DNA of 64,000 nucleotides from assembly GCA_964016885.1 (NCBI GenBank), contig OZ024761.1:13702001-13766000 (forward strand), given 5' to 3'. This stretch comes from Eledone cirrhosa (Eukaryota). Position numbers and translations under genes: made by a program. Positions within the stretch are counted from its first letter, which is position 1, and each line of letters starts with the position of its first letter. A model generated the notes under the pieces. It made no database searches. It saw only the letters and a list, made by a program, of their open reading frames with translations, and was not told where the DNA came from. This document shows positions 36,385-64,000 of the stretch, in pieces.

Positions 36385-36557
36385 TCACATCCTTTTATAG
36401 AGATAAAGATAGCCGAGGTCCTTGGGTGGGTTCTCTGACAAGGCAACTTTCTCGTCGTTGTATATCACCCAGCGGTCATCCTTCAAGATGTGACATACAT
36501 AATGTCCAACCAATGTCGAGGTACCCATGTGACTGATAAAGGCTGCTAATTTGTATT
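36385..36557 (-). CDS. USP5: USP5 last coding exon (His box)
   Basis: [56 protein letters not shown]; cag acceptor. Confidence 0.97.
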
Positions 36558-36762
36558 CTGGAAAAATAAATTAATAAATTTTTTTTTTTAAATAAAATAA
36601 AATAATAATTACTGTATACGGTTGTCCCCAGGTGTTTGCTGGGGTTACTTTCCTAGGGCATCCACGAAGAGTGAAAAACCACAAATATTGGACTGGGTCT
36701 ATACCATAAAAATGTTTCTAGGCGTCAAAACATAAGTAAAATATAGGCCGGCAAATATGGTA

Positions 36763-37098
36763 TCATCATCATCATCATCATTTTACGTCCGCTTTTCCCT
36801 GCTTGCAAGGATGGGACGGGAACTGATTCTGGCTTGATTTCTACAGCTGGATGCCCTTCCTAAAACCAACCTCATTTACAGTGAGTGGTGGGTGCTTTTT
36901 TGCCGTGGTACCTCCACGACCACTTTGCAGTGGAATGATAGGGACCTCAGTCCCTATCATCTCATTTCTACAGCTGAGTAAACTGGAGCAATGTGAAATA
37001 AAGTGTCTTGCTCAAGGAAACAACACATCACCCGGTCTGAGAATTGAACTCACAACCTTTCGATTGCAAGGCCAATGCTCTAACCACTAAGCCATGTG
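36763..37098 (-). mobile_element. SINE family A
   Basis: Nearly full-length copy. Confidence 0.9.
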
Positions 37099-37636
37099 AT
37101 TAATAATTTAGCGTTAAAAAGGGTGAAAAAATATATATCGACAGTCGATCGACTTTCGTCAAATCCGACCGAGGAAACAATGTTTCCGTTGGTCTTTCCA
37201 ATTGCTAATACTATCTGTCAGTCGCAACTCCGGGTAGAAGGAGCAACGTAAAATAAAATGTCTTGCTCAAGGACATAACACATCGCCCGGTGCGAGAATG
37301 GAACTCACAACCTCATAATTGCGAATCCAATTCTCTAACCACTATTGACATGAAAATAGCCAGAGAGAAGTGAAAGAGTGAGAGAAAGGAAGAGAAGTGA
37401 GAGAGAGAGTGAGAGAAAGGAAGAGAAGTGAGAGAGAGAGTGAGAGAAAGGAAGAGAAGTGAGAGAGAGAAAGAGAAAGGAAGACAAATGAGAGAGAGAA
37501 AGGAAGAGAAATGAGAGAGAGGAGAAAGGAAGTGGGAGAAAGGAAGAAAAGTGAGAGAGAGAAAGGAAGAGAAGTGAGAGAGAGAAAGGAAGAGAAATGA
37601 GAGAGAGAGAGAGAAAGTGAAGAGTGTGGTAGTTAC

Positions 37637-37778
37637 TTCCTGATCCGTCAGTGTAATGAATTCCCTCTTGTCGCCCTTCACTCTGCTGTTGTGGTGACTC
37701 ACTCTCGGAGTTCATCTCGGCATCCAGCTCAGCTGTGTGGCTGAGGACCCAGTCAACGGCTCTCTCTACATTGTTGTC
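37637..37778 (-). CDS. USP5: USP5 exon (UBA2 C-terminal half)
   Basis: DNNVERAVDWVLSHTAELDAEMNSES...YTDGSG; AG/GT, 142 nt. Confidence 0.95.
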
Positions 37779-37907
37779 CTGTAGTGGTGAGAGAGAGAGA
37801 GAGTGAGAGTGAGAGAATGTGAGAAGCAGAGAGAAAGATAGACAAATACAGAGAGAGACTGAGAGAGAGAGAGAGAGACTGAGAGAGAGAGAGAGAGATG
37901 TACGTAC

Positions 37908-38044
37908 TGTAGATTTCATAGCTTTAATAGCCTGGTTCCTGCTAAATCCCATCGACATTATGATGGCCAGAGAGTTCTCATCTAGACAACTGTCTGACAC
38001 ATTACTCTGTTTGGTACTCAGGAGTTCCAATGGAGAGTCAAAAT
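37908..38044 (-). CDS. USP5: USP5 exon (UBA2 N-terminal half)
   Basis: DFDSPLELL...IMSMGFSRNQAIKAMKST; 137 nt. Confidence 0.95.
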
Positions 38045-38393
38045 CTGGCAGAAACAAACACACACACATGTTAAACTGGGAAAATATATATATATATATA
38101 TATATATAATAATAAAATGTTTAACATGTACGACACCACACAAATACATTTCACTATCATTTGATAATGCATATAAATGCAGAAACCTTCAATAGACAAT
38201 AATTAAATATATAAATAGATAGATAAATAAATAAATGCCATTGTTAAATAATAAATAAATCAACTAATACCTTAACACAAAGTAAAACATTTCGTTTTAA
38301 TCATTTTCTAAACTAGAAAAAAGAGAAAGAGAGAGACACAAAAAAATAAAAAAAATATATTTTTCTTCCTCATAATCGTCTCTTTCTCCCTGT

Positions 38394-38460
<67 letters not shown>

Positions 38461-38467
<7 letters not shown>

Positions 38468-38616
38468 AAAAAGAGATGAAATCGAAAATGCAACTGGAGT
38501 CTTATTTTTTTTAAAAATATATATATTTTTAAAAAAAATTTTTTTTAAAAATATATATATTTTTAAAAAAAATAAGACTCCAGTTGCATTTTCGATCTCA
38601 TCTCTTTTTCTTTATA
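38461..38616. repeat. Near-perfect palindrome beside (TA)n
   Basis: tataaagaaaaagagatg...gagtcttattttt vs aaaaataagactc...catctctttttctttata. Confidence 0.9.
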
Positions 38617-38671
38617 CTTTCACTCGTGTAGGACACCTCGGTTATTTTTCATTTTGTAAAAAAAACCTCAC

Positions 38672-38724
<53 letters not shown>

Positions 38725-38811
38725 GAGGTTATATTTAATTTGTTGGGATTCAAAAAGCTTAAACATTTTTTATAACTGATATAAAGCATTCAACAGATTA
38801 GTGGAGTAAAT

Positions 38812-39135
38812 ACACAATATATTAATAAATGGAAACTATATTTATAAAACCATATTTATTTTATTATACATATTTCAAGGGCAACCAAGGCAAATTATAG
38901 TGCGCTTTCATCAGATAAAATACAGATTTGTTTTATAAATAAATATTGACATACCCGGAAAAAAAGACAACCTTAACGGTTGGAGCTTCCTGGATATGTC
39001 AATATTTATTTATAAAACAAATCTGTATTTTATCTGATGAAAGCGCACTATAATTTGCCTTGGTTGCCCTTGAAATATGTATAATAAAATAAATATGGTT
39101 TTATAAATGTAGTTTCCATTTATTAATATATTGTA
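38812..39135. mobile_element. Fold-back element (~145-bp arms) with hammerhead in each arm
   Basis: Arms ~38812-38960 / 38987-39135. Confidence 0.9.
39026..39091 (+). ncRNA. Type-I hammerhead ribozyme motif (mirror copy on minus strand ~38857-38922)
   Basis: UAUUUUAU-CUGAUGA-AAGCGCA...UGCCCUU-GAAAU AUGU AUA-AUAAAAUA. Confidence 0.72.
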
Positions 39136-39163
39136 TATATATATATATATATATATAGATATA

Positions 39164-39660
39164 TAATGTAGGAGGTGAGTTTTATTGTAGAACCATAAAA
39201 CAATGCATATATCAGATAAGTAGCACTCAACAGTTGATAGAACTGGAGTATATATAGAAGAAATTAAAAATGGTGGTTAAAAAAGTTCCATATATTTTAT
39301 TATGCGCATTTCAAAAACAAATATCACACCTGTGAACAGGTGTGATATTTGTTTTTGAAATGCGCATAATAAAATATATGGAACTTTTTTAACCACCATT
39401 TTTAATTTCTTCTATATATACTCCAGTTCTATCAACTGTTGAGTGCTACTTATCTGATATATGCATTGTTTTATGGTTCTACAATAAAACTCACCTCCTA
39501 CATTAAAGTGTCCACTTGTTCACAGGTGTTTTTAGGCATCATATCATGTTTTCTTATTTTATCTGATGAAAACGCAATTGTTGTCCCAGGATGATATTTG
39601 TTTTTGAAATGTGCATAAAATATATGGAACTTTTTTAACCATCATTTAATTTCTTATATA
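39164..39660. mobile_element. Palindrome (39164-39504) followed by a direct partial repeat with hammerhead core (39554-39622); Penelope pLTR-like layout
   Basis: ~170-bp arms around cacctgt-ga-acaggtg; GAAATGCGCATAATAAAATA at ~39357, with a GAAATGTGCATAAAATA variant after CTGATGA at 39563. Confidence 0.8.
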
Positions 39661-39710
39661 TATATATATATACAAACACACACATACACTCAAACACACA
39701 TATATATAGG

Positions 39711-39745
<35 letters not shown>

Positions 39746-39770
39746 GATATATATATACACATGCACACAG

Positions 39771-39801
<31 letters not shown>

Positions 39802-39828
39802 CACACTCAAAAACAAACATACACACAG

Positions 39829-40218
39829 CATCATCACCGTTTTATGTCCGTTCTTCCACACTAGCATGGGTTAGACGGGTTGTCCTGTTGTGGGCAGTGT
39901 CCGGTCGGCTGACCTTGTCTTGCTCATACGGGAACTGATTCTGGCTTGATTTCTACAGCTGGATGCCCTTCCTAACACCAACCTCATTTACAGTGAGTGC
40001 TGGGTGCTTTTTTTGCCGTGGTACCTTCACGACCGCTTTGCAGTGGAATGATAGGGACCCCAGTCCCTATCATCTCATTTCTACAGCTGAGAAAAGTGGA
40101 GCAATGTGAAATAAAGTGTCTTGCTCAAGGAAACAACACATCACCCGGTCTGAGAATTGAACTCACAACCTTTTGATTGCAAGCTCAATGCTCTAACCAC
40201 TAAGCCACACGCTTTCAC
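39829..40218 (-). mobile_element. SINE family A variant with a different 3' tail
   Basis: Family A body; tail catcatcaccgttttatgtccg...ctagcatggg. Confidence 0.85.
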
Positions 40219-40301
40219 ATATATATACACATATATATATATATATATACACACATATTGTATGGTATGTTATTGCTTGTATGGTATGTAATTAACCTTT
40301 A

Positions 40302-40347
40302 TGCTCTGATGAGTCCCACTTATAGTGCGGATGAAACAATGTTAGCA
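40302..40347 (+). ncRNA. Minimal type-I hammerhead ribozyme
   Basis: UGCU-CUGAUGA-GUCC CAC uuaua GUG C GGAU-GAAAC AAU GUU-AGCA. Confidence 0.75.
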
Positions 40348-40584
40348 AGTAAAGATATGCATATGCTATAAGCGTTCTTTGTTATTTATTATATTATACA
40401 CACATATATATTAATACTATATATATACTACTTATAAAAAGGAAGTTTGTTTGTGCGTTGACTGTTAATAACACTGAATAAAATTGATAATAATTAAGGT
40501 TTCTCGTGTTTTCAACTAATCTCACCTCCGACATGCTCACAATCGCCCTTTTTTTCCGAAAACATAATGTACGTGTGTTTTTAC

Positions 40585-40728
40585 CTGGATCTCCCATGTG
40601 TTCCATAACCCAGTTAGTTGCAGCTTCCAGTCCATTGTTTTGTGTGTAGTAGACCCCTTTCTGGCAGGCCTCTAGAGGGAAGCCCATATCTAGGAGTTGC
40701 GAGACCAAACTGTCGTCAATCCGGATCT
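40585..40728 (-). CDS. USP5: USP5 exon (UBA1)
   Basis: EIRIDDSLVSQLLDMGFPLEACQKGVYYTQNNGLEAATNWVMEHMGDP; 144 nt. Confidence 0.97.
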
Positions 40729-41323
40729 CTGGAGAGAGAAATACACGAGATAAATGAAGAGTCGGGGCTGTGGGGGAGACCAGCACATGGGACCCCACTT
40801 GCTCACCATATGGAGATTGTAGAGATGGGAAAGGCCAGAGAGATGGAGGCGATGACAGTGGGAGTTTGGCTGTTCTTTCATGTCTGCTTAGGTTACAATT
40901 GCAGTGTGATAGAAGTTCTTCTGTTTACACTAGGTAGATATGTCTACATGTCACAACACCCAATGGTTTCTGATTTAGACACAAGGCCAACAATTTTAGG
41001 GAAGGAGAAAAAAAAAAGGATCGATTGACTTTCGTCAAATGGGACCGAGGAAACAATGTTTCCGTTGGTCTTTCCAGTTGCTAGTACTATCTATCGGTCG
41101 CAACTCCAGGTAGAAGGAGCAACGTGAAAGAAAGTGACTTGCTCAAGGACATAACGCATCGCCCGGTCCAGGAATCGAACTCACAACCTCAAGATTGTGA
41201 ATCCAATTCTCTAACCACTCAGCCACACGCCTTCACAGGGAAGAAGAAAGTCGATTAAATGGACCCCAGTATTCGACTGGTATTCTTTAGGGTTTTATGG
41301 GTAAGGTGAACAGCTTTACTGAC

Positions 41324-41425
41324 CTGGCTCTGCAGATTCTGTAGGCATCTCTTCCTCACCTGGCAACAGGCCAGTACCTTGAAGACCCGTCAAATCTAAT
41401 TCATCAGGGATGTCCATGGACACAT
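41324..41425 (-). CDS. USP5: USP5 exon
   Basis: DVSMDIPDELDLTGLQGTGLLPGEEEMPTESAEP; 102 nt. Confidence 0.95.
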
Positions 41426-42081
41426 CTGAAATGGTAGAGAGGAAGGGAGAGTTGTATAGTTTAGAGAAGGTAGCAAGAGGGTGTGTGTGAGGGAGAGGAA
41501 AGGAGAGAGAAAGGAAGAGTGGTATAGTTTAGAGAGGGTGTGTGTGAAAGAGAGGAAGAGAGAGAGAAAGAAAGGAGTGTGAGGGAAAGCGAGAGAGAGG
41601 AAAGAAGAGTTGTATAGTTTAGAGAGGGTAGCAAGAGGGTGTGTGTGAGGGAGAGGAAAGGAGAGAGAGAGAGAAAGGAAGAGTGGGATAGTTTAGAGAG
41701 GGTGTGTTCGAAAGAGAGGAAGAGAGAGAGAAAGAAAGGAGTGTGAGGGAAAGCGAGAGAGAAAGAGAGGAAGGAAGAGTTGTATAGTTTAGAGAGGGTA
41801 ACAAGAAAGAGAAAGAGAGATAGAGGTAAGGAGAGTTGTGTATTTTAGAGAAGAATAAAGAGTAAGGTCTAACATGAAAAGCAACATAAGCCCAAGACTC
41901 TAAAAACTAGACCTCAGGCCTTCACAAACACAAAGAAGAGAAAGGGTGTGAGGAAGAGAAAGAGAAAGGGAGAAAAAATAAATAAATAAAATAAAATACA
42001 ACAGACACCTAAAATTCCCACCACCCTCCCCCCCCAAAATACCCAAAACAAAACAAAAACCTTTAAGAGTTACTTACTTAC

Positions 42082-42170
42082 CTAATTTTTTCGGGACCCA
42101 ATCATTGCCAATAATGAACTTATTGAGATGTACCATTAGATAATTAGGGAAGGAAGAGAATCTTGTGGTT
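42082..42170 (-). CDS. USP5: USP5 exon
   Basis: [29 protein letters not shown]; 89 nt. Confidence 0.96.
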
Positions 42171-42315
42171 CTGGATGTGTCCATGGTGGGATGTGAATAA
42201 GAAAGAGAAAGAAGACAGAGAATAATAACAACAATAATAGTACTTTCTGATTTAACCCTTTAACATTTACATATTTTTGTGGTAAACACTTTACCTCACA
42301 TAACATTTACATTAC

Positions 42316-42705
42316 CATCATCATCATCATCATTTTACGTCCACTTTTCCCTGCTTGCAAGGGTGGGACAGGAACTGACTCTGGCTTGACTTTTACAGCT
42401 GGATGCCCTTCCTAACACCAACCTCATTTACAGTGAGCGCTGGGTGCTTTTTTTCCATGGCGCCTACACGTCCACTTTACAGTGTGGGCTGGGTGCTTTT
42501 TGGCCTTGGCACCTCCTCGACCACTTTGCAATGGAATGATAGGGACCCCAGTCCCTATCATCTCATTTCTACAGCTGAGTAAACTGGAGCAATGTGAAAT
42601 AAAGTGTCTTGCTCAAGGAAACAACACATCACCCAGTCTGAGAATTGAACTCGCAACCTTTTGATTGCAAGGCCAAAGCTCTAACCACTAAGCCATGTGT
42701 CTCCT
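42316..42705 (-). mobile_element. SINE family A (internal duplication) inside a TTAA MITE end starting at 42252
   Basis: Duplicated tttacagtg...ggtgctttttt block; MITE sequence on both sides. Confidence 0.85.
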
Positions 42706-42785
42706 ATATATACTATTGTATTTTTGTGGTAAACACTTTACCCCACATAATATCTCATGTAACATTTACATTACTATATATATAC

Positions 42786-43088
42786 TACTGTACTAAGTTT
42801 ACTCCCCAGTATATTTCACTACAAATACTCTAATGTATAGGTACTGTACTAAGTTTACTCCCCAGTATATTTCACTATAAATACTCTAATATATAGGTAT
42901 TGTACTAAGTTTACTCCCCAGTATATTTCACTACAAATACTCTAATGTATAGGTACTGTACTAAGTTTAGTCCCCAGTATATTTCACTACAAATACTCTA
43001 ATGTATAGGTACTGTACTAAGTTTACTCCCCAGTATATTTCACTACAAATATTCTAATATATGGATGTGCTTTGTAAATGCTAAGTTT
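42786..43088. repeat. 56-bp tandem repeat x5
   Basis: tactgtactaagtttactccccagtatatttcactacaaatactctaatgtatagg. Confidence 0.92.
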
Positions 43089-43135
43089 GATCCATTAAAT
43101 TACTGTAAAACCTAAACCATAGTTTCGGTACTTAC

Positions 43136-43258
43136 TTATGGACAATGGACTTTGACTGGAGAGCAGCACTAAAGAAATCATCAACAGTTTCAACAGCGGC
43201 AAAAGCCTCAATACAGGATGTTAGAGGGATCCTTGGTCGTACCAGAGCTTCAGGGGAA
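43136..43258 (-). CDS. USP5: USP5 exon (proximal acceptor of the duplicated array)
   Basis: SPEALVRPRIPLTSCIEAFAAVETVDDFFSAALQSKSIVHK; 123 nt, phase 2-2. Confidence 0.93.
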
Positions 43259-44053
43259 CTACAACACACAAGAGAAAGAGATGGAAAGGTGGTAAATATA
43301 ACATTAAATGGGAAGACAAAGGACTCAATACAGGATGTTAGAGGGATCCTTGGTCGTACCAGAGCTTCAGGGGAACTACAACACACAAGAGAAAGAGATG
43401 GAAGGGTGGTAAATATAACATTAAATGGGAAGACAAAGGACTCAATACAGGATGTTAGAGGGATCCTTGGTCGTACCAGAGCTTCAGGGGAACTACAACA
43501 CACAAGAGAAAGAGATGGAAGGGTGGTAAATATAACATTAAATGGGAAGACAAAGGACTCAATACAGGATGTTAGAGGGATCCTTGGTCGTACCAGAGCT
43601 TCAGGGGAACTACAACACACAAGAGAAAGAGATGGAAGGGTGGTAAATATAACATTAAATGGGAAGACAAAGGACTCAATATAGGATGTTAGAGGGATCC
43701 TTGGTCGTACCAGAGCTTCAGGGGAACTACAACACACAAGAGAAAGAGATGGAAGGGTGGTAAATATAACATTAAATGGGAAGACAAAGGACTCAATATA
43801 GGATGTTAGAGGGATCCTTGGTCGTACCAGAGCTTCAGGGGAACTACAACACACAAGAGAAACAGATGGAAGGGTGGTAAATATAACATTAAATGGGAAG
43901 ACAAAGGACTCAATATAGGATGTTAGAGGGATCCTTGGTCATACCAGAGCTTCAGGGGAACTACAACACACAAGAGAAAGAGATGGAAGGGTGGTAAATA
44001 TAACATTAAATGGGAAGACAAAGGACTCAATATAGGATGTTAGAGGGATCCTT
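43207..44053. repeat. 117-bp tandem repeat x7.2 spanning a USP5 intron/exon junction
   Basis: Unit starts at 43207, 43324, 43441, 43558, 43675, 43792, 43909, 44026. Confidence 0.97.
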
Positions 44054-44335
44054 GAGTCTCTGATCTCCAAGCTATGCACTCTATCGAGTAACGTTACTTC
44101 AGAGACCCTTGGGAGGTACACCATTTCGGCTGCTTGTATTTGCGATCGTATTCTTTCAGTCATTACACAAGATACATGACCATAGGTTAGGGTTGGTGTG
44201 AATACCGAATTGAAGACAGCGAGTTTGGCTTTTACACCTGCCTCCCTTCTTCTGATTACTGCATACTGAAGCTGGTGCATTACTGCACCAGCTCCTGCAA
44301 TTCTTGCACTTAATTCAGCCTCCTTGTCTTCCATC
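44054..44335 (-). mobile_element. RTE-type LINE fragment
   Basis: ELSARIAGAGAVMHQL...KLAVFNSVFTPTLTYGH...IQAAEM...LLDRVHSLEIR. Confidence 0.8.
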
Positions 44336-44459
44336 TCTCGTGAATACGGCCCCGAAATACTTGAACTACTCCACCCGTTTCTGTGGAATTGAGGATGAAA
44401 CAACAATAATATAAAATAGAAAATTTACAACAAGTAATTTCTAAATAATTTAAACCTAC

Positions 44460-44517
44460 ATTTTCTGTCCTTGTGCTTCTAGGAGAGATTTTTTAGCTTC
44501 ATAGGCAGCAACCTCTT
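44460..44517 (-). CDS. USP5: USP5 exon
   Basis: EEVAAYEAKKSLLEAQGQKI; 58 nt, phase 1-2 fits neighbours. Confidence 0.9.
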
Positions 44518-44556
44518 CTGTAAATGAAATATATGGTATTATTAATATATACACAT

Positions 44557-44740
44557 GGATTGGCAGAATCGGTAGAGGGTCAGACACCATGCTTTCCAGC
44601 ATAGTTACGTCCCTTTACAATCTGAGTTCAAATCCCGCCGAGGTTGACTTTGACTTTCATCCTTACGGGGTCGATAAAATAAAGTACCAGTAATGCACTG
44701 GGTAATTGCTGGCCTTGTGCCTAAAGTAGAAACAATTATT
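44557..44740 (+). mobile_element. SINE family B
   Basis: A/B boxes and core. Confidence 0.85.
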
Positions 44741-45495
44741 AATATATACACATATAAACTTGCACACACATATATCATTACCATCATCATCATCGTTTTT
44801 ATGTCCAATTTTCCACACTTGTATGGGTTGGACAGGTCTTTCTCAGCATGGCATCTCTCCACAGATCTCAATCCTTTGTCATTGCCTCTGAGAATCTCAG
44901 GGATTTGAAGTCAGTTCTCACAACCTCTGCCTAGGTCCTTCTTCGTCTACCTCTACTGTGACTTCCTCACTGTCATTTCCTAGCACTTCTTCACCCAACG
45001 ATCATTGTCCATCCACATCACATGTCCAAACCAATGCAGTCTTAAACCCAAATTCTCCTTCAGTTCTTCCAAGCTGTGCCTCTCTCTCACACACACATTG
45101 CACATCCAACAGAGCAATATATATATATACACATATATATGTATACTATACAAACACATTCACACGTGTGTGTGTGTGTATATATATATACACACACACA
45201 CACATATATATATTTATATATATATATATACTATAAACACACACATCATCATCACTGTTTAACATCCATTTTCCAATACCTAAACGGCTGGTTATGGCCA
45301 GTTTAAACAGGAAGAGGTGAGAGAAATCTGGTCGGATTCAGCCGGTTTAAATGCTAAAGGATTAAACTATTTAATAGCTTTACATACGTTTCAATGGTTA
45401 TTATTATTTCAATTTAATTAAAGAGGAAAAATATTGAGTATATATGTTTGGACCGGAGCAGAGAGAGAGAGAGAAAAGTAAAAGAAGAGTCATAC

Positions 45496-45649
45496 CTTTA
45501 TTAACAGAAGCATCTAAGTGCACAGGAACTGCAAACACATAGTCAGTTCTGTATGTGTAACGCACCTTGCCTGATGCAACACACTTCACTTTTTCTTCGA
45601 CCTTGTACTTGAAACAGTCAGTAGCTTTAGGTAAATGTAGTCCTTGGCG
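45496..45649 (-). CDS. USP5: USP5 exon
   Basis: RQGLHLPKATDCFKYKVEEKVKCVASGKVRYTYRTDYVFAVPVHLDASVNK; 154 nt. Confidence 0.96.
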
Positions 45650-45680
45650 CTGTTAAAATTAATCAAATTAGTCACTTAGC

Positions 45681-45681
<1 letters not shown>

Positions 45682-45713
<32 letters not shown>

Positions 45714-46016
45714 TTTTTACGTCCGCTTTTCCCTGCTTGCAAGGGTGGGACGGGAACTGATTCTGGCTTGATTTCTACAGCTGGATGCCCTTCCTAACAC
45801 CAACCTCATTTACAGTGTGGGCTGGGTGCTTTTTTTGCCGTGGCACCTCCACGACCACTTTGCAGTGGAATGATAGGGACCCCAGTCCTATCATTTCATT
45901 TCTACAGCTGAGTAAACTGGAGCAATGTGAAATAAAGTGACTTGCTCAAAGAAACAACACATCACAACCTTTCGATTGCAAGGCTAATGCTTTAACCACT
46001 AAGCCATGTGCCTCCA
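45682..46016 (-). mobile_element. SINE family A with tagcaat target duplication
   Basis: tagcaat on both flanks. Confidence 0.9.
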
Positions 46017-46304
46017 TAGCAATACAATGTACTATTAACAAAAGCACAATAGTGCCACTTTATAGAACAGACCACCTGCGCATTTAACCTCTTCAGTGCT
46101 GTAGACAAGATAACTCGTCCTAACATCTTTGAACTCGTTTCCAACAGTTCATAACTTCAAAGCTAGATGGGGTTACTAGTTTATTGATGTGACATTTGTC
46201 AATCAAATTAGTCCTTTTACTAAAAAAAGAAAAAACCAGCTCAGCAAGTGTAGCTGTGTAAAATACACATGGCAGTCAACAAGTTAAAGTATAGCATTTA
46301 GTGT

Positions 46305-46452
46305 AACTGGTGTAATATTCACTTCGAAAGTGAAACCGGTGTAATATTCACCTCCAAAGTGAAACCGGTGTAATATTCACCTCCAAAGTGAAACTGGTGT
46401 AATTATTCACCTTCAAAAATGAAACCGGTGTAATATTAACCTCCAAAGTGTA
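46305..46452. repeat. ~29-bp tandem repeat x5
   Basis: gtgaaaccggtgtaatattcacctccaaa. Confidence 0.9.
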
Positions 46453-46666
46453 AATATTTTAGCATCTTATTTGCAGAGAATTTTGATGATGGTGAAATTC
46501 AGCAAAATATTGACCTTGAATATAAGCCAACCGATGATTTTAACTTAGATTTTTTTCTGTGTCATATTTCTCAGCTTCTATAAGAGTATATACAATAGGT
46601 CTGTCTTCAATCAGACTAAACAACAACTACAAAAGAAAACAAGGAAGATAATCAAGACTACTCTAC

Positions 46667-46789
46667 CTCAATGAAATTGATGAGGTGGAGGAAATATTCT
46701 TCAGCATCTTGTTGGCGCTTGGAAGAGAATTCCGGGTGTCCTCTGCCTACAAGGGTCTTGAACATCTGAGGTCGGATTCCTTTAGGGGA
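46667..46789 (-). CDS. USP5: USP5 exon (QQD box)
   Basis: [41 protein letters not shown]; 123 nt. Confidence 0.97.
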
Positions 46790-46895
46790 CTGTAATGATA
46801 CATAATATATCAATTGAATAAATAAAAATATATTAACAAATAAGTGTTAGGGACATACATATTTATATATACATAATCATCAACATTATATATAC

Positions 46896-47243
46896 ATCAT
46901 TTCATTTTACGTCCGCTTTTCCCCCGCTTGCAAGGGTGGGACGGGAACTGATTCTGGCTTGATTTCTATTGCTGGATGCCCTTCCTAACACCAACCTCAT
47001 TTACAGTGAGAGCTGGGTGCTTTTTTGCTGTGGCACCTACACGACCATTTTACGGTGAATGCTGGGTGCTTTTTTGCTGTGTCACCTCCACGACCACTTT
47101 GCATCATTTCTACAGCTGAGTAAACTGGAGCAATGTGAAATAAAGTGTCTTGCTCAAGGAAACAACACATCACCTGGTCTGAGAATTAAACTCACAACCT
47201 TTCGATTGCAAGGCCAATGCTCTAACCACTAACCTATGTGCCT

Positions 47244-47246
<3 letters not shown>
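46896..47246 (-). mobile_element. SINE family A
   Basis: Full-length with internal duplication. Confidence 0.9.
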
Positions 47247-47307
<61 letters not shown>

Positions 47308-47409
47308 TTATTTATTTATATTTAGTTAATAAATGAAACAAAAATAAAACACAAGAGGCAAATTTACAGTTATATTAGATTCATGCTTATATATATATAT
47401 ATATATAGT

Positions 47410-47737
47410 CATCATGTTACGTCCGCTTTTCCCTGCTTGCAAGGGTGGGACGGGAACTGATTCTGGCTTGATTTCTACAGCTGGATGCCCTTCCTAACAC
47501 CAACCTCATTTACAGTGAGTGCTGGGTGCTTTTTTCCGTGGCACCTGCATGACCACTTTGCAGTGGAATGATATGGACCCCAGTCCCTATCATCTCATTT
47601 CTACAGCTGAGTAAACTGGAGCAATGTGAAATAAAGTGTCTTGCTCAAGGAAACAACACATCACCCGGTCTGAGAATTGAACTCACAACCTTTCGATTGC
47701 AAGGCCAGTGCTCTAACCACTAAGCCATGTGCCTCCA
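47410..47737 (-). mobile_element. SINE family A
   Basis: Full-length copy in (TA)n. Confidence 0.9.
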
Positions 47738-47884
47738 TATATATATTTTGTGGTTCATCAGTGGGTAGAACCGGTCATACCGTTTAGTTAACCGCGATGT
47801 TATCCCAACATATGCAAGCGTGGAAAAACAGACGTAAAAACAATGAAGATGATGATATATATATATATATAAAATGAGACTAAC

Positions 47885-47966
47885 CTGCATATATTCATCA
47901 TCTAACTCCGCGTCAGTTGGTGGCTTGGAATATTCACCAGAAAGAAGGCCATGAGCTAATTTAGCC
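47885..47966 (-). CDS. USP5: USP5 exon
   Basis: AKLAHGLLSGEYSKPPTDAELDDEYMQ; 82 nt. Confidence 0.95.
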
Positions 47967-48621
47967 CTGAGAGTGGGGAGAAGAAAATAAAAATATCAAT
48001 AACAATAAGTATGATCAAAAACATAAGACACAACACTACATGTTCTCCAACAATTTGGGGGGAAGGGGAAAGTCGATTAAATGGACCCCAGTACATTACT
48101 GGTACTTTATTTTATCGAACCTGTAAGGATGAAAGGCAAAGCTAATCTCAGCGGGATTGGAACTCAGAACGTAAAGGGCCGTACCTCTATGCCATGAAAT
48201 ATGGTGTCTGACACTATCAATATTGCCAATCCACTAACAATAACAATGAATTCTAACCGACTTATCAATCCTCAGGGATGACAATATATCTCACAAGGAA
48301 ATGGAGAAACTATCCAAATATTAAGATCTAGAGATAGAAATAACCCAAATGTGGATGTTGAAGACAGAAACAATATCTATAACCATAGGTGTTCTGTGAA
48401 TGATAAAAAAAAAAACACACAGGCAGATGCATAACCAAAACTCCAGGACTTACAAATTTATACATCTTACAAAAAATAGCACTACTAAACACTGCACATA
48501 TATTATGAAGTGTACTCTCAATACAAAAGAAACACCACCAAAAACCACACTGCACATACCCAAGGCACACAAAGCTGTGCTCAGTAATGTAATAATAATT
48601 ATAATACTACTAATCACTTAC

Positions 48622-48693
48622 ATTTGGACATTGAAGTCAGAGGTTGGATTAACTGGAGCACTACCAAAAATGGTGTCTCTAGAGTTGAAGTAC
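48622..48693 (-). CDS. USP5: USP5 exon
   Basis: YFNSRDTIFGSAPVNPTSDFNVQM; 72 nt. Confidence 0.94.
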
Positions 48694-48764
48694 CTGGAAA
48701 GAGAGAGAGAGAGGTGAGTGTAAGTCTTTGAAGTTGTGTGTACGAGCGTCAGCAGAAAAGTTCA

Positions 48765-49150
48765 TAAGCTTCTTCTTCTTGTCGTGTCCACAAAAGTATC
48801 AGTTACAAAGCTTGGCAAGATGTGGTTCTGCCACAGCTGAACACATTGGTGTCCTTTCTCATTAAACTCTGCCAAGTCCAATGCTGTGCAGGGGTGTTCC
48901 AGCAGGGGGCATATCAGGAGGTGCTGCGTAGTCTGTGGTTCGATGCCGCAGTCACACACAACATCCCCATCCTTTAAATATCCCCATTTTGCAAGAGTGA
49001 CTATTGCACGTCCAACACCAGATCTTAGTCTGTTTAGGCATTTCCACACTGCATAGTTTGTATCTGCTCCAGAGGGGAAGTGCCTCGCTCGCCTTGAGCT
49101 CCATTGTTGTTACTGATGGGAAGTTGTTAAGTTCATAAGCTGACCAAGAT
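48765..49150 (-). mobile_element. Non-LTR retrotransposon 3' fragment with CCHC finger and (AAG)n tail
   Basis: WKCLNRLRSGVGR...CDCGIEPQTTQHLLICP; ends gacacgacaagaagaagaag. Confidence 0.75.
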
Positions 49151-49159
49151 ACTTTCATA

Positions 49160-50475
49160 GAATGTGACCAAATGAGGTTTATTTTTCAATATAGCCCCCG
49201 TCCTCCTACAGTACACACTTCTTTCATCAGTGGTACAGTGTTTTGTAAAAAGAAGTAATCAACAGCAGATATGATGCCATCATCACTGCGATACTGGTTC
49301 CTAGCCAAGTGTCTTTTTTATGTTGGAGAACAGATGAAAAAAAACACAGTCCACGCTGTAATGTGGCCGTGTAGGTAACACGGTAAAAACCTCCCAGTAC
49401 ACACTGTAAACGTGGTTGATGTTGTGAAGGGGACCCAGCCGTAGAAAACCCGCCAGACGTGTATGTGTCACAACAATAAAACACACAGTCCACGCTGTAA
49501 TGTGGTCGTGTAGGTAACACGGTAAAAACCTCCCAGTACACACTGTAAATGTGGTTGGTGTTGGGAAGGGGACCCAGCCGTAGAAAACCCGCCAGACGTG
49601 TATGTGTCACAACAATAAAACACACAGTCCACGCTGTAATGTGGTCGTGTAGGTAACACGGTTAAAACCTCCCAGTACACACTGTAAATGAGGTTGGTGT
49701 TGGGAAGGGGACCCAGCCGTAGAAAACCCGCCAGACGTGTATGTGTCACAACAATAAAACACACAGTCCACGCTGTAATGTGGTCGTGTAGGTAACACGG
49801 TTAAAACCTCCCAGTACACACTGTAAATGTGGTTGGTGTTGGGAAGGGGACCCAGCCGTAGAAAACCCGCCAGACGTGTATGTGTCACAACAATAAAACA
49901 CACAGTCCACGCTGTAATGTGGTCGTGTAGGTAACACGGTTAAAACCTCCCAGTACACACTGTAAATGTGGTTGGTGTTGGGAAGGGGACCCAGCCGTAG
50001 AAAACCCGCCAGACGTGTATGTGTCACAACAATAAAACACACAGTCCACGCTGTAATGTGGTCGTGTAGGTAACACGGTAAAAACCTCCCAGTACACACT
50101 GTAAATGTGGTTGGTGTTGGGAAGGGGACCCAGCCGTAGAAAACCCACCAGACGTGTATGTGTCACAACAATAAAACACACAGTCCACGCTGTAATGTGG
50201 TCGTGTAGGTAACACGGTAAAAACCTCCCAGTCCACACTGTAAATGTGGTTGGTGTTGGGAAGGGCATCCAACCATAGAAAACCCGCCAGACAGTCCTGA
50301 GCAAGACAACCAATCTTGCTTCAAGTGGGACAAATCCCATCCAGACCCATGCTAGCGTGGAAAATGGACGTTAAACGATGATGATGATGATGATGATGAT
50401 GATAGTCAGATGGGGCCGAATCAGGAGAATAGGGAGGGTGATCAACCAGTTCAAAGCCACAGAGGGAGAGTGAAT
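49160..50475 (-). mobile_element. Mariner transposase relic split by a SINE-derived insertion
   Basis: GFELVDHPPYSPDSAPSDY at ~50402-50465 continues as HLFSNIKK at ~49335. Confidence 0.75.
49341..50290. repeat. 139-bp tandem repeat x~7 derived from a SINE body
   Basis: 139-bp period; last unit runs into ggaagggcatcc...ggacgttaaacgatgatgatg SINE/RTE tail. Confidence 0.93.
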
Positions 50476-50561
50476 GTTGTTGAGAGAGAGAGAGAGGGGG
50501 GGGGGGGAGAAAAAGCAAACTGAAAGAGAAAAAAAAAGGTGGGGGGAGGGGGCCAACTCAC

Positions 50562-50755
50562 TTCTCCTGGAAGTCCGGAATGGTGAAAATCACCTGCATC
50601 ACAGAATTCATATAACAACTGTTGCCAAGGTTGCGCATGCCGGTACATCCAGGTCCATAGACAGGTGTCAGCTGACTGCCAGACTCCTGAATCACATCCC
50701 ACTCCCCAATCTTCTGGTTCAAGTCTATCTCCAACTCCACCATTGTTTTTTCTGT
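50562..50755 (-). CDS. USP5: USP5 exon (catalytic Cys box)
   Basis: TEKTMVELEIDLNQKIGEW...GPGCTGMRNLGNSCYMNSVMQVIFTIPDFQEK; 194 nt. Confidence 0.98.
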
Positions 50756-51543
50756 CTACAAAAAAGAAAAAGAAAAACCCAACAAAGTTTTATTCTGAGA
50801 AAGGCATGAATGACAAAACATCTAATCACACAAACCTTTTTCTCTGTCCCCTGTCTCCCCATCTCCCACCTCATCCCATCTAGTCTCACCTTTACACACC
50901 TGGGCAGTGTCTTCACTAAAGATGGCAACTCAAAAACTGATGTAGAAAAGAGACATGGCCAAGCTGCAGTCATCATCATCATCATCATCATCATCATCGT
51001 TTAACGTCTATCTTCCATGCTAGCATGAGTTAGACGGAAATTGTCCCACTTGAGGCAAGATTGATCGGGTGACTGTGTCTCGCTCGTATAGGACTGTCTT
51101 TCAATATTTGAAGCCTGTTTGGTGCAGCTCCTCCATTAATCAAGACACAAAGCTTGGTGTGGTCCTGGCCTCTGCAGAATGGAGATATGTTGCCCAATGT
51201 GGATAGCATCACTGCACAAGAGCGGAAGAAGATGCTGGGCCATATGCTATGATTATCGGCTGAAGAGAACAGTGAGGCCTTCTCTCAAATGGAAGCCAGA
51301 AGGAGGTCATAAGAAGCAAGGCTGACAAGTCAAGAACTGACTGTGGAGGAAGACCTGACCTGGGAGTAGCCCTGCAAGTGTGCAGAATGGAGATCTCTTG
51401 TCCCCCAATGCTACATAGGGTATGGGGGGAGACCTGGGCTGTGACAAGGTCTGCAACTGTGGGGGAATGGAGGTCTCTTGTCCCCCAATGCTCCTCAGGG
51501 AATGAAAGGAATTAAAGATGAAGAAGAAGAATGATCAACTCAC

Positions 51544-51638
51544 CTTCTGCAGAGAGGCAATGTTGATGCCAAAGTGTGTCAGATGTTTTGAGAGATACGG
51601 ATCTTCTACCATATCATCTTCATCATAAGAATACACAT
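51544..51638 (-). CDS. USP5: USP5 exon
   Basis: DVYSYDEDDMVEDPYLSKHLTHFGINIASLQK; 95 nt. Confidence 0.97.
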
Positions 51639-51886
51639 CTGAAACAACAACAACAGTTATAACTACAAAAACTACAATAGATACAACTACAACAAAACAT
51701 TTGATGATAATGACAATTATGATGATGATAATGACAATTATGATGATGATAATGACAATGATGATGATGACGATGATAATGATGATGATAGTGAAGATGA
51801 ATAATATGAATACTATGATGATGACAATGATGATGATGATGAAATAAGGATGAGGACATCCAACCGACCGAATCTGTTGTACTCAC

Positions 51887-52122
51887 CAGCACCGTCAGCT
51901 GTTATGGTACCCAGCTTGACAGCCAGAGGGTACTTGGTGATGTTGTAATAGTCAACGGCATGATTGTTGCCACCGCTACCATCAAAGAAACGACGGCCAC
52001 AGAGAATGGCGCCATCTGTGAGGTTGAGCCATAGGTTGGTGGTGAGGTCACACATCTCACATTTCCAGCCAGTCGGTGGAATCTTCTTACCGTTGTCAAG
52101 CTGGAGCAAGGTCTCAGCATGT
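51887..52122 (-). CDS. USP5: USP5 exon (ZnF-UBP)
   Basis: HAETLLQLDNGKKIPPTGWKCEMCDLTTNLWLNLTDGAILCGRRFFDGSGGNNHA...KLGTITADGA; 236 nt. Confidence 0.98.
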
Positions 52123-52151
52123 CTACAGAAAGGTAAAAAAATATATATATA

Positions 52152-52790
52152 CATATTGTTATACTTTGGGAGGGTCATGTTGCCAATAAGAAACACACGC
52201 ACCAGTTGCTTTCACTTCAATTTATTATAATAAATTTAGGAATTTAGGAATTTATAAATTTCCGGTTGGTTCCACAACCAGATAGTTGTTTATATATTGT
52301 CAAAGTTCTTTCGTCACACATTCTGTGACCTCTTCAGTGACTGGGGATTCTTTTCTTTGTTTTTGTGCCTCTCTTTTGTTCTGTCCTATGCCATTTTGTT
52401 TCTGTGTGTGTGTTGTGTGTGTGTTGTGTGCTCAGTCTGCGCATGCGCCACATCCGGGTGTCTGTGTGTGTTTATATTCGTTTATTAACATGTTACCGGT
52501 TGGTTGTTTGTTCTATGTGTGTGTGTGTTTTCATTTTGTTCTTAATTGTAAGTTGTGATGTTGCTGTTCCACTCATATTTTCTATTTAATTTTGGTTGTA
52601 ATTCTTTTATGTTTATTGCTTCTGTGATTTGTCTAAACATTGCGTCTTTTCTGTGTGTAGAAAGTGAAAGCAACTGGTGCGTGTGTTTCTTATTGGCAAC
52701 ATGACCCTCCCAAAGTATAACAATATCGGTTTCAACACACGTTTTCAGATAAAGAATCTTGCTAAACAAATTCAGACACGATATATATAT
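52152..52790 (-). mobile_element. 5'-truncated Penelope-like element: GIY-YIG C-terminus, 3' pLTR with hammerhead, inverted 5' copy
   Basis: STHRKDAMFRQITEAINIKELQPKLNRKYEW (~52566-52660); inverted repeat 52152-52217 / 52662-52727; bounded by (TA)n. Confidence 0.8.
52299..52341 (-). ncRNA. Minimal type-I hammerhead ribozyme
   Basis: GUCA-CUGAAGA-G GUCACA gaaug UGUGAC-GAAAG AA CUU-UGAC; decayed relatives on + strand at ~22388-22432 and ~54914-54957. Confidence 0.8.
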
Positions 52791-52923
52791 ATATATATAT
52801 ATATATAAATTCGAACACTGGTGTATACACACACAAGCACATTTATACAGTAAATCAGACAATACATCCAATACCAGTCTTCTCTTATCTGTTTACCTGG
52901 GCAAAGCTGGGTACCTCAGCTAG

Positions 52924-52956
<33 letters not shown>

Positions 52957-53000
52957 ATGTAAAAGGTAAACAGAAATATCAACACAATCGGTACAGTATT

Positions 53001-53512
53001 CTAGGGCGGGTAAAATTCCCGAGATCCATGGACGAGTTCTCTCCAGCGGTCTCTGTCCCTCATTATCGCTGCCATGTCCTGCATCCCCAACAGACCAGTG
53101 TCTGTCCTTAGGGCATCAAAATATGTTAACCTTGGTCTTCCTCTTCCAGTGTGTCCATGTAGGGGCTCCCACAGGAGCACTGAGTGCAATGTCAACTCTG
53201 GATGTCAGTGAGCATGTCCAGCTAACCTCAGTCTACCACTCCCAGTGTGTCCATGTAGGGGCTCCCACAGGAGCACTGAGTGCAATGTCAACTCTGGATG
53301 TCGGTGAGCATGTCCAGCTAACCTCAGTCTCTTCTGTGTCACTTTTGAGCTGACTTTTGGGAGGCTCCCATACAGCTCTGAGTTCTTCATCCTCAGTGTA
53401 TACTGATTAATGTTCAGAGCCATCCTCAGCATTCTCGTGTAGCACCCATCCACCATCTGAGTGAGTTTCTTGGTCAGTGTCCAAGTCTCAGACCCGTACA
53501 GCAACACAGACT
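53001..53512 (-). mobile_element. RTE-type LINE 3' fragment with ~100-bp internal duplication
   Basis: LLYGSETWTLTK...DGCYTRMLRMALN...RLRLAGH...GRGRPRLTY. Confidence 0.85.
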
Positions 53513-53560
53513 TTATGGAAAGGATATATTAGGTTAACGCTTGATATAGCAGGAAGAGGG

Positions 53561-53596
53561 TCTTAACGTTTCGGACGCTAGTCCTTCATCAGAAGA
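53561..53596 (-). ncRNA. Minimal type-I hammerhead ribozyme
   Basis: UCUU-CUGAUGA-A GGAC uagc GUCC-GAAAC GUU-AAGA; helix III is only the palindrome AACGUU; decayed relatives at ~54592-54627 (-), ~33300-33335 (+), ~3362-3395 (+). Confidence 0.8.
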
Positions 53597-53957
53597 AAGA
53601 ATGAAAAATAAAATAGATTGAGGGGACGGACGGGATGGAATTGGAAAAAATGTCTTTAGATAAAAATAACAGGTCCATTCATGTTGACATGTAATTAAAT
53701 ATGAATTTGATGCAACACTTGATTCTTTATTCCCATATATATATATATGGAAACAAAGAATCAGTGTTATACCATATACATATTTAATTACATATTACAC
53801 ATGTTTCATTGTCTATCAGCTCAAGGAACAATCTATTAATGATTGAACCTGACTCTGGAATCGGAAGCTCTTCAGATATGCTTTAACATGTAGACTCGTG
53901 TCTCATCCACCATATCACCTATGGCTGCAATTAACTTGCACCTTCACACCTATCTCC

Positions 53958-53992
<35 letters not shown>

Positions 53993-54440
53993 GATGATGA
54001 TGATGATGATATATATATATATATATGTGTGTGTAAATGAAGTAATTCCGTCGGAAAGGTCCAGGAAAATTATCTTATATGTTTTTTAAAATCCACTGTC
54101 AATAAATACACCAGGATTTTTTTCACTCTGATGACTGAAACCAAATTTTGTTTGCTTTCAAGAAACCACTGGTAAATGAAATAATTATCTTATGTTGTTT
54201 ATTACATAACTATATATATATATATATATAAATAGATATATATATAAATCGGAATGGATGCAGTAAAACCAGTTAGACCATTACTCACCGGAGTACTCGA
54301 TAATTGGAGTAGTAGAGTAGGTAATATGAAGGATTCAGGACCCCGACGGCTGAGTTCCTGCCATTTCAACAGCAAGATCCAAACCGAATTCAGAACTAGC
54401 TGTTGAAACAGGAGCTCAGCCATCGGGGTCCCAATTCCTT

Positions 54441-54499
<59 letters not shown>

Positions 54500-54684
54500 A
54501 AGCATAAGGCAAACAGAAATAACAAACCAAATGACACACTACAATGAAGAAATATATTATTAGTTTTACGCTTGATATAGTAGGAAAAGAGTCTTAACGT
54601 TTTGGACGCTAGTGCTTCATCAGGAGATAGAATGAGAAATTAAAGAAAGAGAAAGATTGAGGAGAGGGGGCAGGGTGGAAATGG

Positions 54685-54738
<54 letters not shown>

Positions 54739-54746
54739 GTACTTAC

Positions 54747-54853
54747 TTGCTTATAATCCTCTTGTCACCTTCCCAAGATCCAGTGGCTAGAGCTGCTTCT
54801 TCCATCTTCAAAGCATCTTCAGCCTCGATGATAGCAATAGCTGACAGGTTTAT
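54747..54853 (-). CDS. USP5: USP5 exon
   Basis: INLSAIAIIEAEDALKMEEAALATGSWEGDKRIISK; 107 nt. Confidence 0.94.
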
Positions 54854-55306
54854 CTATATATATATACCAAGATGGTGTAGGAGAGAACAAAGGAGAGACA
54901 AAATAAAAACCTAGTCACTGAGGAGGTCACAGAATGTGTGACAAAAGAGCTTTGACAATATATAAACAGCCATCCGGTTATCGAACCAACCAATCAACCA
55001 ACTGGAAATTTATAATAATGGGCAGAGCCCATCTTCTCTCCAGGGTTGAACACAGCAGATTTCTTCCAGAGGATAGAGAGAGTGAGAGAAAGGAATTGAG
55101 AAAGAAATATAGAGGAAGAATCGACCCCAGTACATGACTGATACTTTTTTTTATTGACCTTAAATGGATGAAAAGCAAAGTTGACCTCGGCAGGATTTGA
55201 ACTAAAGAGAGCCGAAACGAATACCGCAAAGCATTCTATCCAACGTCCTAAAGTCTGTTAATTCGCTGCCATGTTTAAAGTGTATATCATTTTTTAAATA
55301 ACTTAC

Positions 55307-55425
55307 AATCTCAGGTAACTGTGGATCAGGATAAGGTAAAACAGTCCATTTAGGTAGAACCAGTATAGAAACATCTTCAACGAACTCAAACGTTTTCTGG
55401 TTGGCATCAAAACCTCCTTCAACAC
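55307..55425 (-). CDS. USP5: USP5 exon
   Basis: GVEGGFDANQKTFEFVEDVSILVLPKWTVLPYPDPQLPEI; 119 nt. Confidence 0.96.
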
Positions 55426-56219
55426 CTGAGTTGAAGATAGAAAAAAAAAACACAAACATTAAAAAGACACATCAGACCACATTTCTAACATCTTACTTAC
55501 ATTCCTGCTGAATTTATTTTATTGTGGGACCAGAACTAGGTAGGTTGTCAAAGGATTGCGAGGACTTTTCAGCTGTGTCAGCACAACTGAAAAGTCCTCG
55601 CAATCCTTCGTTTGGCAAGCTTTCTACAATTGGGTGTGCTTCCTACCGCCAACCATTTTACAGAGTGTACTGTGTGATTATGTCTTTGGCACAACTGAAG
55701 GGTCCTCCCAACCCTTTACTCAGTAAGCTTTCTACAGCTGGATGTCCTTTCTATCACCAACCATTTTACAGCATGTACTGGGTGTGTTTATTTTATAAAT
55801 TACCAACACTAGTGAGGTTGTCGAACCATTGACAACTTAAGGGTTCTCTCAATGCTTTTTGACATGGTTTTTACAGCAGGGTGCCCTTTTTATCATCAAC
55901 CATCTTTCAGGGTGTACTGGGTGCATTTTCAAAGCACCAGCACTAGAGAGATTGTCAGTTATTCTGCCAACAGAAGAGACCTCTCTGCTCTGAGTTGGCA
56001 GTGAGTGAGAGAAGGAAGATAAGTTTGATGTTATGTATGTATAACATCGACAGAGACTGCCTAGATTTAACAGGGGCTTAGAATATCAACAAAAACCCTA
56101 ATAGATTTCACAGAGGTCTAAAATATCAACAAAGACCCTAATAAATTTCACAGAGGTCTAACAAATCAAGAAAGACCCTAATATATTTAACAGTGGTCTA
56201 AAAAAAAGGGCAAACTCAC

Positions 56220-56277
56220 CAATAGCCAGTCGTGTAGGTTTCTTCAACGGGGGAGGGTCTTCTGAAGCTTTTTGGAT
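56220..56277 (-). CDS. USP5: USP5 exon
   Basis: IQKASEDPPPLKKPTRLAIG; 58 nt. Confidence 0.95.
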
Positions 56278-56530
56278 CTAAACATGGAAAAACAAACAGC
56301 AATTATATTGTTAAAATATACAGTGAGTTTGAGTGTGAGGGATGATTTGAGTATGAGTGAAGAGAGTTTGAGTATGAGTGAAGAGAGATTGAGATTGATT
56401 GAGAGAGAGTGAGAGAAAGAGTAGAGACTGAAGGTGGTGAAAGAGATGGTGTGTTTGTGACAACTCATCCAACTCATCCCAGCATGGAAAGTGAACATTT
56501 AATGGTGGTGATGATGACAGCTGTACTTAC

Positions 56531-56656
56531 TATTTTTCTACGCCTCTTGATGTGAAGGAAAACAGCATTGCCAGTCTTTTTGAAATGCTCCTCTATGTAT
56601 GGCTTGCCAAGACCCAGAAATGAATTCATACAAATGTACAAACCAGTCTCACTTTC
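56531..56656 (-). CDS. USP5: USP5 probable exon 2 (N-terminal cryptic ZnF-UBP); exon 1 not seen
   Basis: ESETGLYICMNSFLGLGKPYIEEHFKKTGNAVFLHIKRRRKI; 126 nt, cag/gt. Confidence 0.97.
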
Positions 56657-56693
56657 CTGAACGACATATCAAAAAGAAAATGGACGCAGAAAA

Positions 56694-62252: not shown

Positions 62253-62997
62253 CATTCATCATGATCCGGCAGCTACAGAATAATCAAGTCAATAATTGAC
62301 CTCCACGTGGGTCTGTCGTTCATTGCCATTGCCAAGTCCTCTGGATTTCAATACCAGAATCTCTGGAGATGACATCGTGATAGGAGAGCTTGCACCCCCT
62401 GTTATTAGTGACTGCTTATGGTTTCCAAAGCACTAATGGGGACATACTGGCAAGACATTCAAAGTACAAAACAGCACAATGACTGCATCACATTAAATAT
62501 CAAAATCCTTAGTCAACAAATGTTCACAACGATGTGTCCACTAGTAAATATTACTATAACAAACATATAAGTAATTAATCTCTCGGACTTTTACGAAGTT
62601 CTGAGGGGACTTAGCAAACTTAATATAAAGAGTGGTACCCTCATGCATGAAGAAAAACCTCATTTGCATACTGAGCGACCTTACAGCCAGCCTCGCCGAA
62701 AACAAAAAGAAACAAAATTTGTTTTCGCTCTTAATAAAGTGGATACGCTAATCAGCCGATGTATATATTTGAGAATACTATGTATTCTCAGCAGTTCCAG
62801 TGAGTAGCAGACACAAGAATACACAATCTTCGTAAAGAGCAAACACTCCGAAACAATTGTCGATGGCATTTTCTCAGCTATTGCTGGAACAAAAGCATTA
62901 AGTTGTTTATTTCAAAAATACATATGGTGTCTATGAGGCTGTTTACTTGCAAACAAACTGAATATCATTAATAATATTATGATATCATTATTAATCA

Positions 62998-63950: not shown

Positions 63951-64000
63951 GTAATATAATATAATATAAATATACACACATATATATATATATGTATATG

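Follow-up and report, generated by a model that had tools for sequence, protein, structure and literature searches.

Seven copies of one splice acceptor in the USP5 gene of Eledone cirrhosa: probably a tolerated minisatellite removed as intron

In the 64,000-nucleotide stretch of DNA analyzed here (the window), the boundary between intron 13 and exon 14 of USP5 is repeated in tandem, and seven acceptors are found in front of a single exon. Which of them is used, and whether the other six matter to the gene, is the question raised by this locus. The array lies on the minus strand: TRF reports it at 43200-44054, with period 117, 7.3 copies and 99% matches. Each of the seven 117-nt units is composed of 65 nt of intron end and the first 52 nt of exon 14, the exon-side starts being located at 43960, 43843, 43726, 43609, 43492, 43375 and 43258; this arrangement, described by an earlier note from the sequence alone, is confirmed by TRF and by comparison of the units. 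The gene is indeed USP5, as the note had it: a 20-exon model of 2,433 nt, built on the window plus 10 kb beyond it, has an intact frame with a single stop, at its end, and its product is identical to the O. vulgaris USP5-like protein P0001 at 746 of 812 residues (92%), without internal stops. The upstream exon, which the note marked by position 44460, is borne out, its full extent being 44517-44460. The relevant features are the following, all on the minus strand.

36385..64000, minus strand: USP5 gene; exons 2-20 are in the window, exon 1 about 1.1 kb past the window end
44460..44517, minus strand: USP5 exon 13, 58 nt, donor AAT/gtaggt; from the gene model, its last 30 nt matching a loose end of the transcript contig
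44053..44390, minus strand: putative LINE-like repeat fragment, its 3' side cut off where the exon-derived stub begins
44026..44054, minus strand: stub of 29 nt, exon positions 24-52, a partial eighth unit
43909..44025, minus strand: unit 1, acceptor for 43960; CGA>TGA at 43941-43939; TGT>TAT
43792..43908, minus strand: unit 2, acceptor for 43843; pyrimidine tract with C>G at 43863; TGT>TAT
43675..43791, minus strand: unit 3, acceptor for 43726; TGT>TAT
43324..43674, minus strand: units 4-6, three identical units (pairwise differences 0), acceptors for 43609, 43492 and 43375
43259..43323, minus strand: intron end of unit 7, the acceptor joined in the transcript contig
43136..43258, minus strand: USP5 exon 14, 123 nt; the 52 nt at its start are the exon part of unit 7
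42082..42170, minus strand: USP5 exon 15, 89 nt; from the gene model and a loose end of the transcript contig

Exon 14 encodes a conserved part of the protein: its 40 aa peptide is 100% identical to that of P0001 and matches residues 541-574 of the human USP5 chain 3IHP. Pfam recognizes in P0001 the zf-UBP_var and zf-UBP domains and a UCH domain with two UBA inserts; an AlphaFold model of the same protein, obtained from 9 sequences, has a mean pLDDT of 32. In a genome-wide DNA search with the repeated exon, all 8 matches fall inside the array, which is therefore a single locus; a search with a USP5 catalytic-domain exon found one strong locus and one weak match elsewhere (E 1e-3). USP5 thus looks like a single working copy, in an octopus that, going by the 92% identity, is not O. 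vulgaris, and the idea of a second copy relieving selection at this site was rejected on the same ground. Two further observations concern the gene. Intron 18 (window 37907-37779) is 129 nt long, a multiple of three, CT-rich and open in frame, and its retention would add 43 residues. In the O. bimaculoides USP5 model P0004, the peptide of exon 13 is missing, intron sequence is included right ahead of exon 14, and the region of exon 4 is different as well; these are probably annotation errors.

The presence of the array in sequencing data was evaluated on four of the ten listed sequencing runs (X1, X3, X4 and X5, with X2, X6-X7 and the RAD-seq runs X8-X10 left aside), whose contigs were compared with 43064-43375. 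Two of them, X1 and X3, both from sample S1 of organism A (a species label that X4 shares), give one contig of 147 nt each, corresponding to 117+30, as would be obtained when a loop of 117 bp is put together from words of 31 letters. The X3 contig contains a joint going back 117, and the X1 contig crosses the unit junction 43323/43324, extending 84 and 52 letters to either side of it. Since the head-to-tail junction is present in two public runs, the array is not merely an assembly error, and the single unit in the reads, which the earlier note had envisaged as evidence of an artefact, is not what the two contigs show. A pure assembly artefact is unlikely.

The number of copies is a different matter. 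Seven is the count of the assembly, for which S1 may itself have been the source, and the depths of the X1 and X3 contigs (40.6 and 26.4), neither of which covers single-copy flank, are no measure of copy number. It may be supposed that the true copies are fewer, or that a short array is carried by most animals: X1 and X3 come from one sample, possibly that of the assembly, and no contig spans the array. Against this supposition, which is highly improbable, stand the loop contigs with a head-to-tail junction in both S1 runs compared, the absence of any N in the window and the presence of variants in an ordered arrangement along the units, which indicates that they are not a collapsed or duplicated read. 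Polymorphism of array length, on the other hand, is likely, and is compatible with the reading of the array proposed below.

The choice of acceptor is documented by a third run of organism A, X4, from sample S2. One contig of 2,640 nt matches 43136-43258 with 0 mismatches, and its loose ends correspond to the end of exon 13 and to the start of exon 15, with 30 out of 30 letters each. The contig is taken as RNA on two grounds: exons are joined in it, and exon 14 has a single locus in the assembly. Exon 13 is joined straight to the last acceptor (43258), and the six upstream acceptors are skipped. On its two sides the contig measures 1,616 and 901 nt, which fits 1,523 and 787 nt of exon in the model with UTRs of 93 and 114 nt added; its length being that of the 2,433-nt coding model plus UTR, no room is left for a 117-nt block. 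Within the exon it reads as copies 4-7 do and unlike copies 1-3. Splicing at 43258, performed in silico, yields the normal peptide. The unit's intron part is not covered by X4, although holes in contigs prove nothing. Of the outcomes considered in the earlier note, it is therefore the skipping of six near-identical acceptors, with use of 43258 only, that was found, within one contig from one sample; transcripts confined to 43258 were the sign by which the note would have counted its proposal refuted. The transcript evidence is this S2 contig, from an animal that may or may not carry the array, while the junction evidence derives from S1; moreover, contigs drop rare variants, so minor isoforms are not visible in X4.

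What distinguishes the last acceptor is not its sequence. The AG is kept throughout, the intron part ending in tag in 7 of 7 units, and, with a scoring matrix built from USP5's own sites, the acceptors score 10.5 in six units and 8.5 in copy 2, where the range of the gene is 7.5-16.7. As six of the seven score alike, sequence strength is not the selector. Copy 7 alone is followed by the rest of the exon and by a strong donor 123 nt away (TAA/gtaagt), the sole strong donor nearby. Exons starting at the upstream acceptors would measure 240, 357, 474, 591, 708 and 825 nt, against 58-236 nt for all 18 internal exons of the gene; yet the 240-nt exon, starting at 43375, exceeds the longest by only 4 nt, and length alone cannot exclude it. 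Exon definition is an established splicing principle, and would account for the choice of the last acceptor, copy 7 being the only one with a strong donor 123 nt downstream; any leak would then be expected mostly as the 240-nt form. The principle is outlined in the accessible part of PMC1557585, where early experiments on duplicated sites are said to have given conflicting results. The premise of the earlier note, that the acceptor met first should win, does not hold in general: in the available text on human CBS 844ins68 and on the amphioxus 'mirages', both described below, splicing is normal.

A weak donor-like site is also present in every unit, at exon position 16/17 (43944, 43827 ... 43242), with scores of 5.2-5.7; these are below 18 of the 19 real donors, on which, however, the matrix was trained. 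Micro-exons of 16 nt, delimited by these sites, are conceivable only in principle.

The reading that is preferred here, and very probable, is that the array is a tolerated minisatellite of the 'mirage' type, whose upstream copies are spliced out as intron, likely through exon definition. Within USP5, it is probably young and silent.

A first alternative is that splicing is leaky, 43375 being often used to produce, through the 240-nt exon, a USP5 with 39 additional residues, along with a declining ladder of longer forms. The sequence allows it: in silico splicing to the flanking exons confirms that the five middle acceptors add 1-5 x 39 residues, as proposed by the earlier note, and the unit consists of 39 whole codons, all open, so mis-splicing gives inserts rather than frameshifts. 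The note was right on the frame being open, although this starts at 43938, just after the TGA, and not at 43854. In addition, the 43375 acceptor scores as the real one (10.5), the 240 nt are close to the longest internal exon (236 nt), and nuclear traces of the other transcript are reported for CBS 844ins68 in the part of PMC1334203 available. In the X4 contig, on the contrary, exon 14 is crossed without a break and the length is that of a normal mRNA, and the 39-residue insert is found in none of 9 aligned cephalopod-type USP5 proteins; it is mostly a hydrophobic translation of intron, with Cys>Tyr in copies 1-3. An open frame is nothing unusual here: among 5,000 dinucleotide shuffles of the unit's pyrimidine-rich intron part, 4,032 (81%) leave the frame open, and divisibility by three has a prior of one in three. 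The array is beyond chance, whereas its being in frame and open is within chance expectation. Frequent use of upstream acceptors is thus unlikely, and repeat-expanded isoforms, suggested by the earlier note, are found in no contig; the frame is open at chance level, and a related organism has a single acceptor (see below). Isoforms with 39 extra residues may still exist at a low level.

A second alternative assigns a role to the stop codon. The first acceptor would be used conditionally, leading through the TGA to decay of the transcript, and the length of the array would set the dose of USP5. A premature stop located more than 50-55 nt upstream of the last junction is generally a target for NMD. 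The TGA at 43941-43939, followed by six exons, satisfies this position rule only if 43960 is used; translation confirms that the stop is met only through this acceptor, as the earlier note had proposed, the TGA being known from the assembly alone. The TGA is in frame, occurs in the first copy only and lies well upstream of the last exon junction; only 6 of the 351 possible single changes in the unit create a stop; and NMD targets would be scarce in steady-state RNA, hence a contig could miss them. Such a switch, however, calls for an exon of 825 nt in which no acceptor is skipped, and this is 3.5 times the longest of the gene. Moreover, the unit has a single CpG, on which the change to TGA falls, and none of the other 117 possible transitions but this one creates a stop. 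CpG methylation is known in octopus. The probability of at least one stop among the four variants is 7% with uniform rates and 12-21% with an assumed bias for transitions and CpG, which leaves the stop a mildly odd point. Copies 2 and 7 also carry private variants, a pattern reported for cluster edges in the available part of PMC3087553, and the arrangement is not conserved, since organism B, the one relative at hand, has a single acceptor. The switch is extremely unlikely: it is seen in no contig, the relative has one acceptor only, and the stop fits chance and CpG decay.

The two alternatives may also be combined, the array acting as a copy-number dial for USP5, with leaky +39n isoforms, decay through the first copy and dose set by array length; this is very improbable. 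If true, the locus would provide a natural ladder of seven sites for the study of acceptor choice by donor distance, with a relative keeping the seed state.

The variants within the array are few. Among the seven units, variation is confined to 4 sites: copy 1 has C>T at 43941, copy 2 has C>G at 43863, copy 7 has C>T at 43287, and the TGT>TAT change (Cys>Tyr) is shared by copies 1-3 and the stub. The mean difference between units is 1.43 nt (1.2%). Private variants in copies 1, 2 and 7, together with the identity of copies 4-6, outline concerted evolution inside the array, with the edges excluded; evidence for homogenisation is weak, because only 4 sites are variable.

Indications on the origin of the array come from organism B. 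Placed on 43121-43359, a 363-nt contig of its run X5 shows 13 substitutions and a single gap (about 94% alike). It contains, in order, a dispersed repeat, an exon stub of about 36 nt, one intron end and exon 14. Over the 65 nt of the intron end, 6 substitutions and 1 gap separate the contig from the majority unit. Where the contig enters the repeat, a comparison by eye finds 20 of 23 letters identical to those of the repeat abutting the array in the window. Organism B thus has about 1.3 units, against 7.25 in the window, where the junction is about 15 nt shorter. The alignment of its stub ends near the weak donor-like site at exon position 16/17. At its junction with exon 14, the O. bimaculoides model P0004 runs on into a comparable intron end, which indicates that the unit's intron part is native to USP5.

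For the repeat fragment bordering the stub, all 40 of the matches scored, out of 7,009 candidates, are 85-100% alike, the top one being the window copy itself. In 5 of 5 other copies of the dispersed repeat the sequence continues beyond the stub junction; the fragment in the window is hence cut off there. In one copy, an open frame overlapping the match hits RVT_1 with E 2.8e-9 (one of the seven frames scanned), and the repeat is called LINE-like on this basis, with moderate confidence. The window's own fragment received no name from Pfam or Atlas. Within it, at its 5' end, an AG after a pyrimidine stretch is found at 44381, a weak acceptor with score 2.7. A target-site duplication of the retroelement was considered and rejected, the repeats not flanking the retroelement.

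The following sequence of events, read from the comparison of the two organisms, may be proposed for the minisatellite. Long ago, the boundary between intron 13 and exon 14 would have been duplicated, the duplicate then losing its 5' part through a deletion that joined it to the LINE-like fragment. The deletion would have left a short direct repeat, 117 bp apart, older than the split between A and B. At this repeat, unequal crossing-over or slippage may have led, in the present lineage, to a recent expansion or to ongoing homogenisation. The upstream copies would then be free to decay, as suggested by the CpG change to TGA, the Cys>Tyr change and the weakened pyrimidine tract. The state of organism B is likely the seed of the expansion; a contraction in B, instead of an expansion in A, is possible, the direction being deduced from one relative and no outgroup.

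Mid-sized tandem expansions are common in the window, and USP5 holds four arrays, with units of 56-139 bp. A 74-bp unit is repeated 74.5 times (96% matches) at 56695-62198, in 5.5 kb of intron 1; it stops 38 nt before the exon 2 acceptor (56656), leaving the exon outside the array. In intron 8, a 139-bp unit is repeated 6.9 times (98%) at 49339-50292, and resembles, by eye, a dispersed repeat at 42427-42527 and 47000-47100. In intron 14, 74 nt beyond the exon 14 donor, a 56-bp unit is present in 4.9 copies (42786-43062). Outside USP5, a 9.2-kb array at 4697-13862 features a CT/CA-rich unit of 24/46 bp, with GC skew near -0.98, and two minisatellites are located at 17781-18764 (72 bp x 13.8) and 22598-23081 (86 bp x 5.6). 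A crude estimate gives 23% for the probability that one of the four USP5 arrays straddles an acceptor.

Minisatellites at a splice boundary would be tolerated because the cell uses the site beside the exon body. The locus also carries a warning, as a gene predictor could wrongly insert repeats of 39 residues into USP5. With it the known cases extend to a cephalopod, and a relative carries what is probably the seed, in the form of a short direct repeat bordering on a truncated retroelement. Its importance would rise only if the upstream acceptors are used.

The literature search found neither a mirage case in cephalopods, absence from print not being proven, nor an acceptor-side VNTR closer than the amphioxus, CBS and F7 cases. 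In amphioxus, as described in the accessible text of PMC3087553, the globin gene BflGb6 contains 'mirages', tandem repeats of an intron's 3' end together with the following exon's 5' part, and is spliced normally; units are 150-160 bp, in 6 and 3 copies on two haplotypes, with divergent edge copies. Other mirages listed, in the parts available of PMC3087553 and PMC3902484, are in Adh3, troponin C, globin BflGb9 and PGBD5.

In human CBS, the c.[833C;844ins68] allele carries a duplicated junction between intron 7 and exon 8; the distal copy is favoured, and the harmful upstream variant is spliced out (PMC2630376, in the text available, which writes 'donor' for the site, whereas a title in its references says 3' splice site). 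As in USP5, the downstream site is strongly preferred, and a damaging variant is removed along with the upstream copy that carries it; CBS, as far as the same text goes, features two copies of 68 bp in a human polymorphism, USP5 seven of 117 bp, in frame.

In human F7, the 37-bp VNTR of intron 7 offers five to nine identical sites, of which the one adjacent to the exon body is used, a choice explained by the authors through oriented scanning, tested with constructs (PMC1557585, available part). The F7 VNTR is on the donor side, the USP5 array on the acceptor side. The model of Rogers, in which a tandem genomic duplication leads to intron gain, likewise involves a spliced-out duplication containing splice signals, as discussed in the accessible part of PMC3087553; in USP5, unlike in the model, no new intron is formed and the copies only lengthen intron 13.

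The amphioxus mirages remain the closest counterpart. To the extent covered by the available text, they share with the USP5 array the preservation of splice signals, a normal mRNA, homogenised inner copies and divergent edges; length differences between haplotypes are a feature of amphioxus, while the contrast in USP5 is between organisms only. The USP5 array differs in being from a mollusc, in having a unit of 39 open codons, and in the existence of a relative with 1.3 copies beside a retroelement junction.
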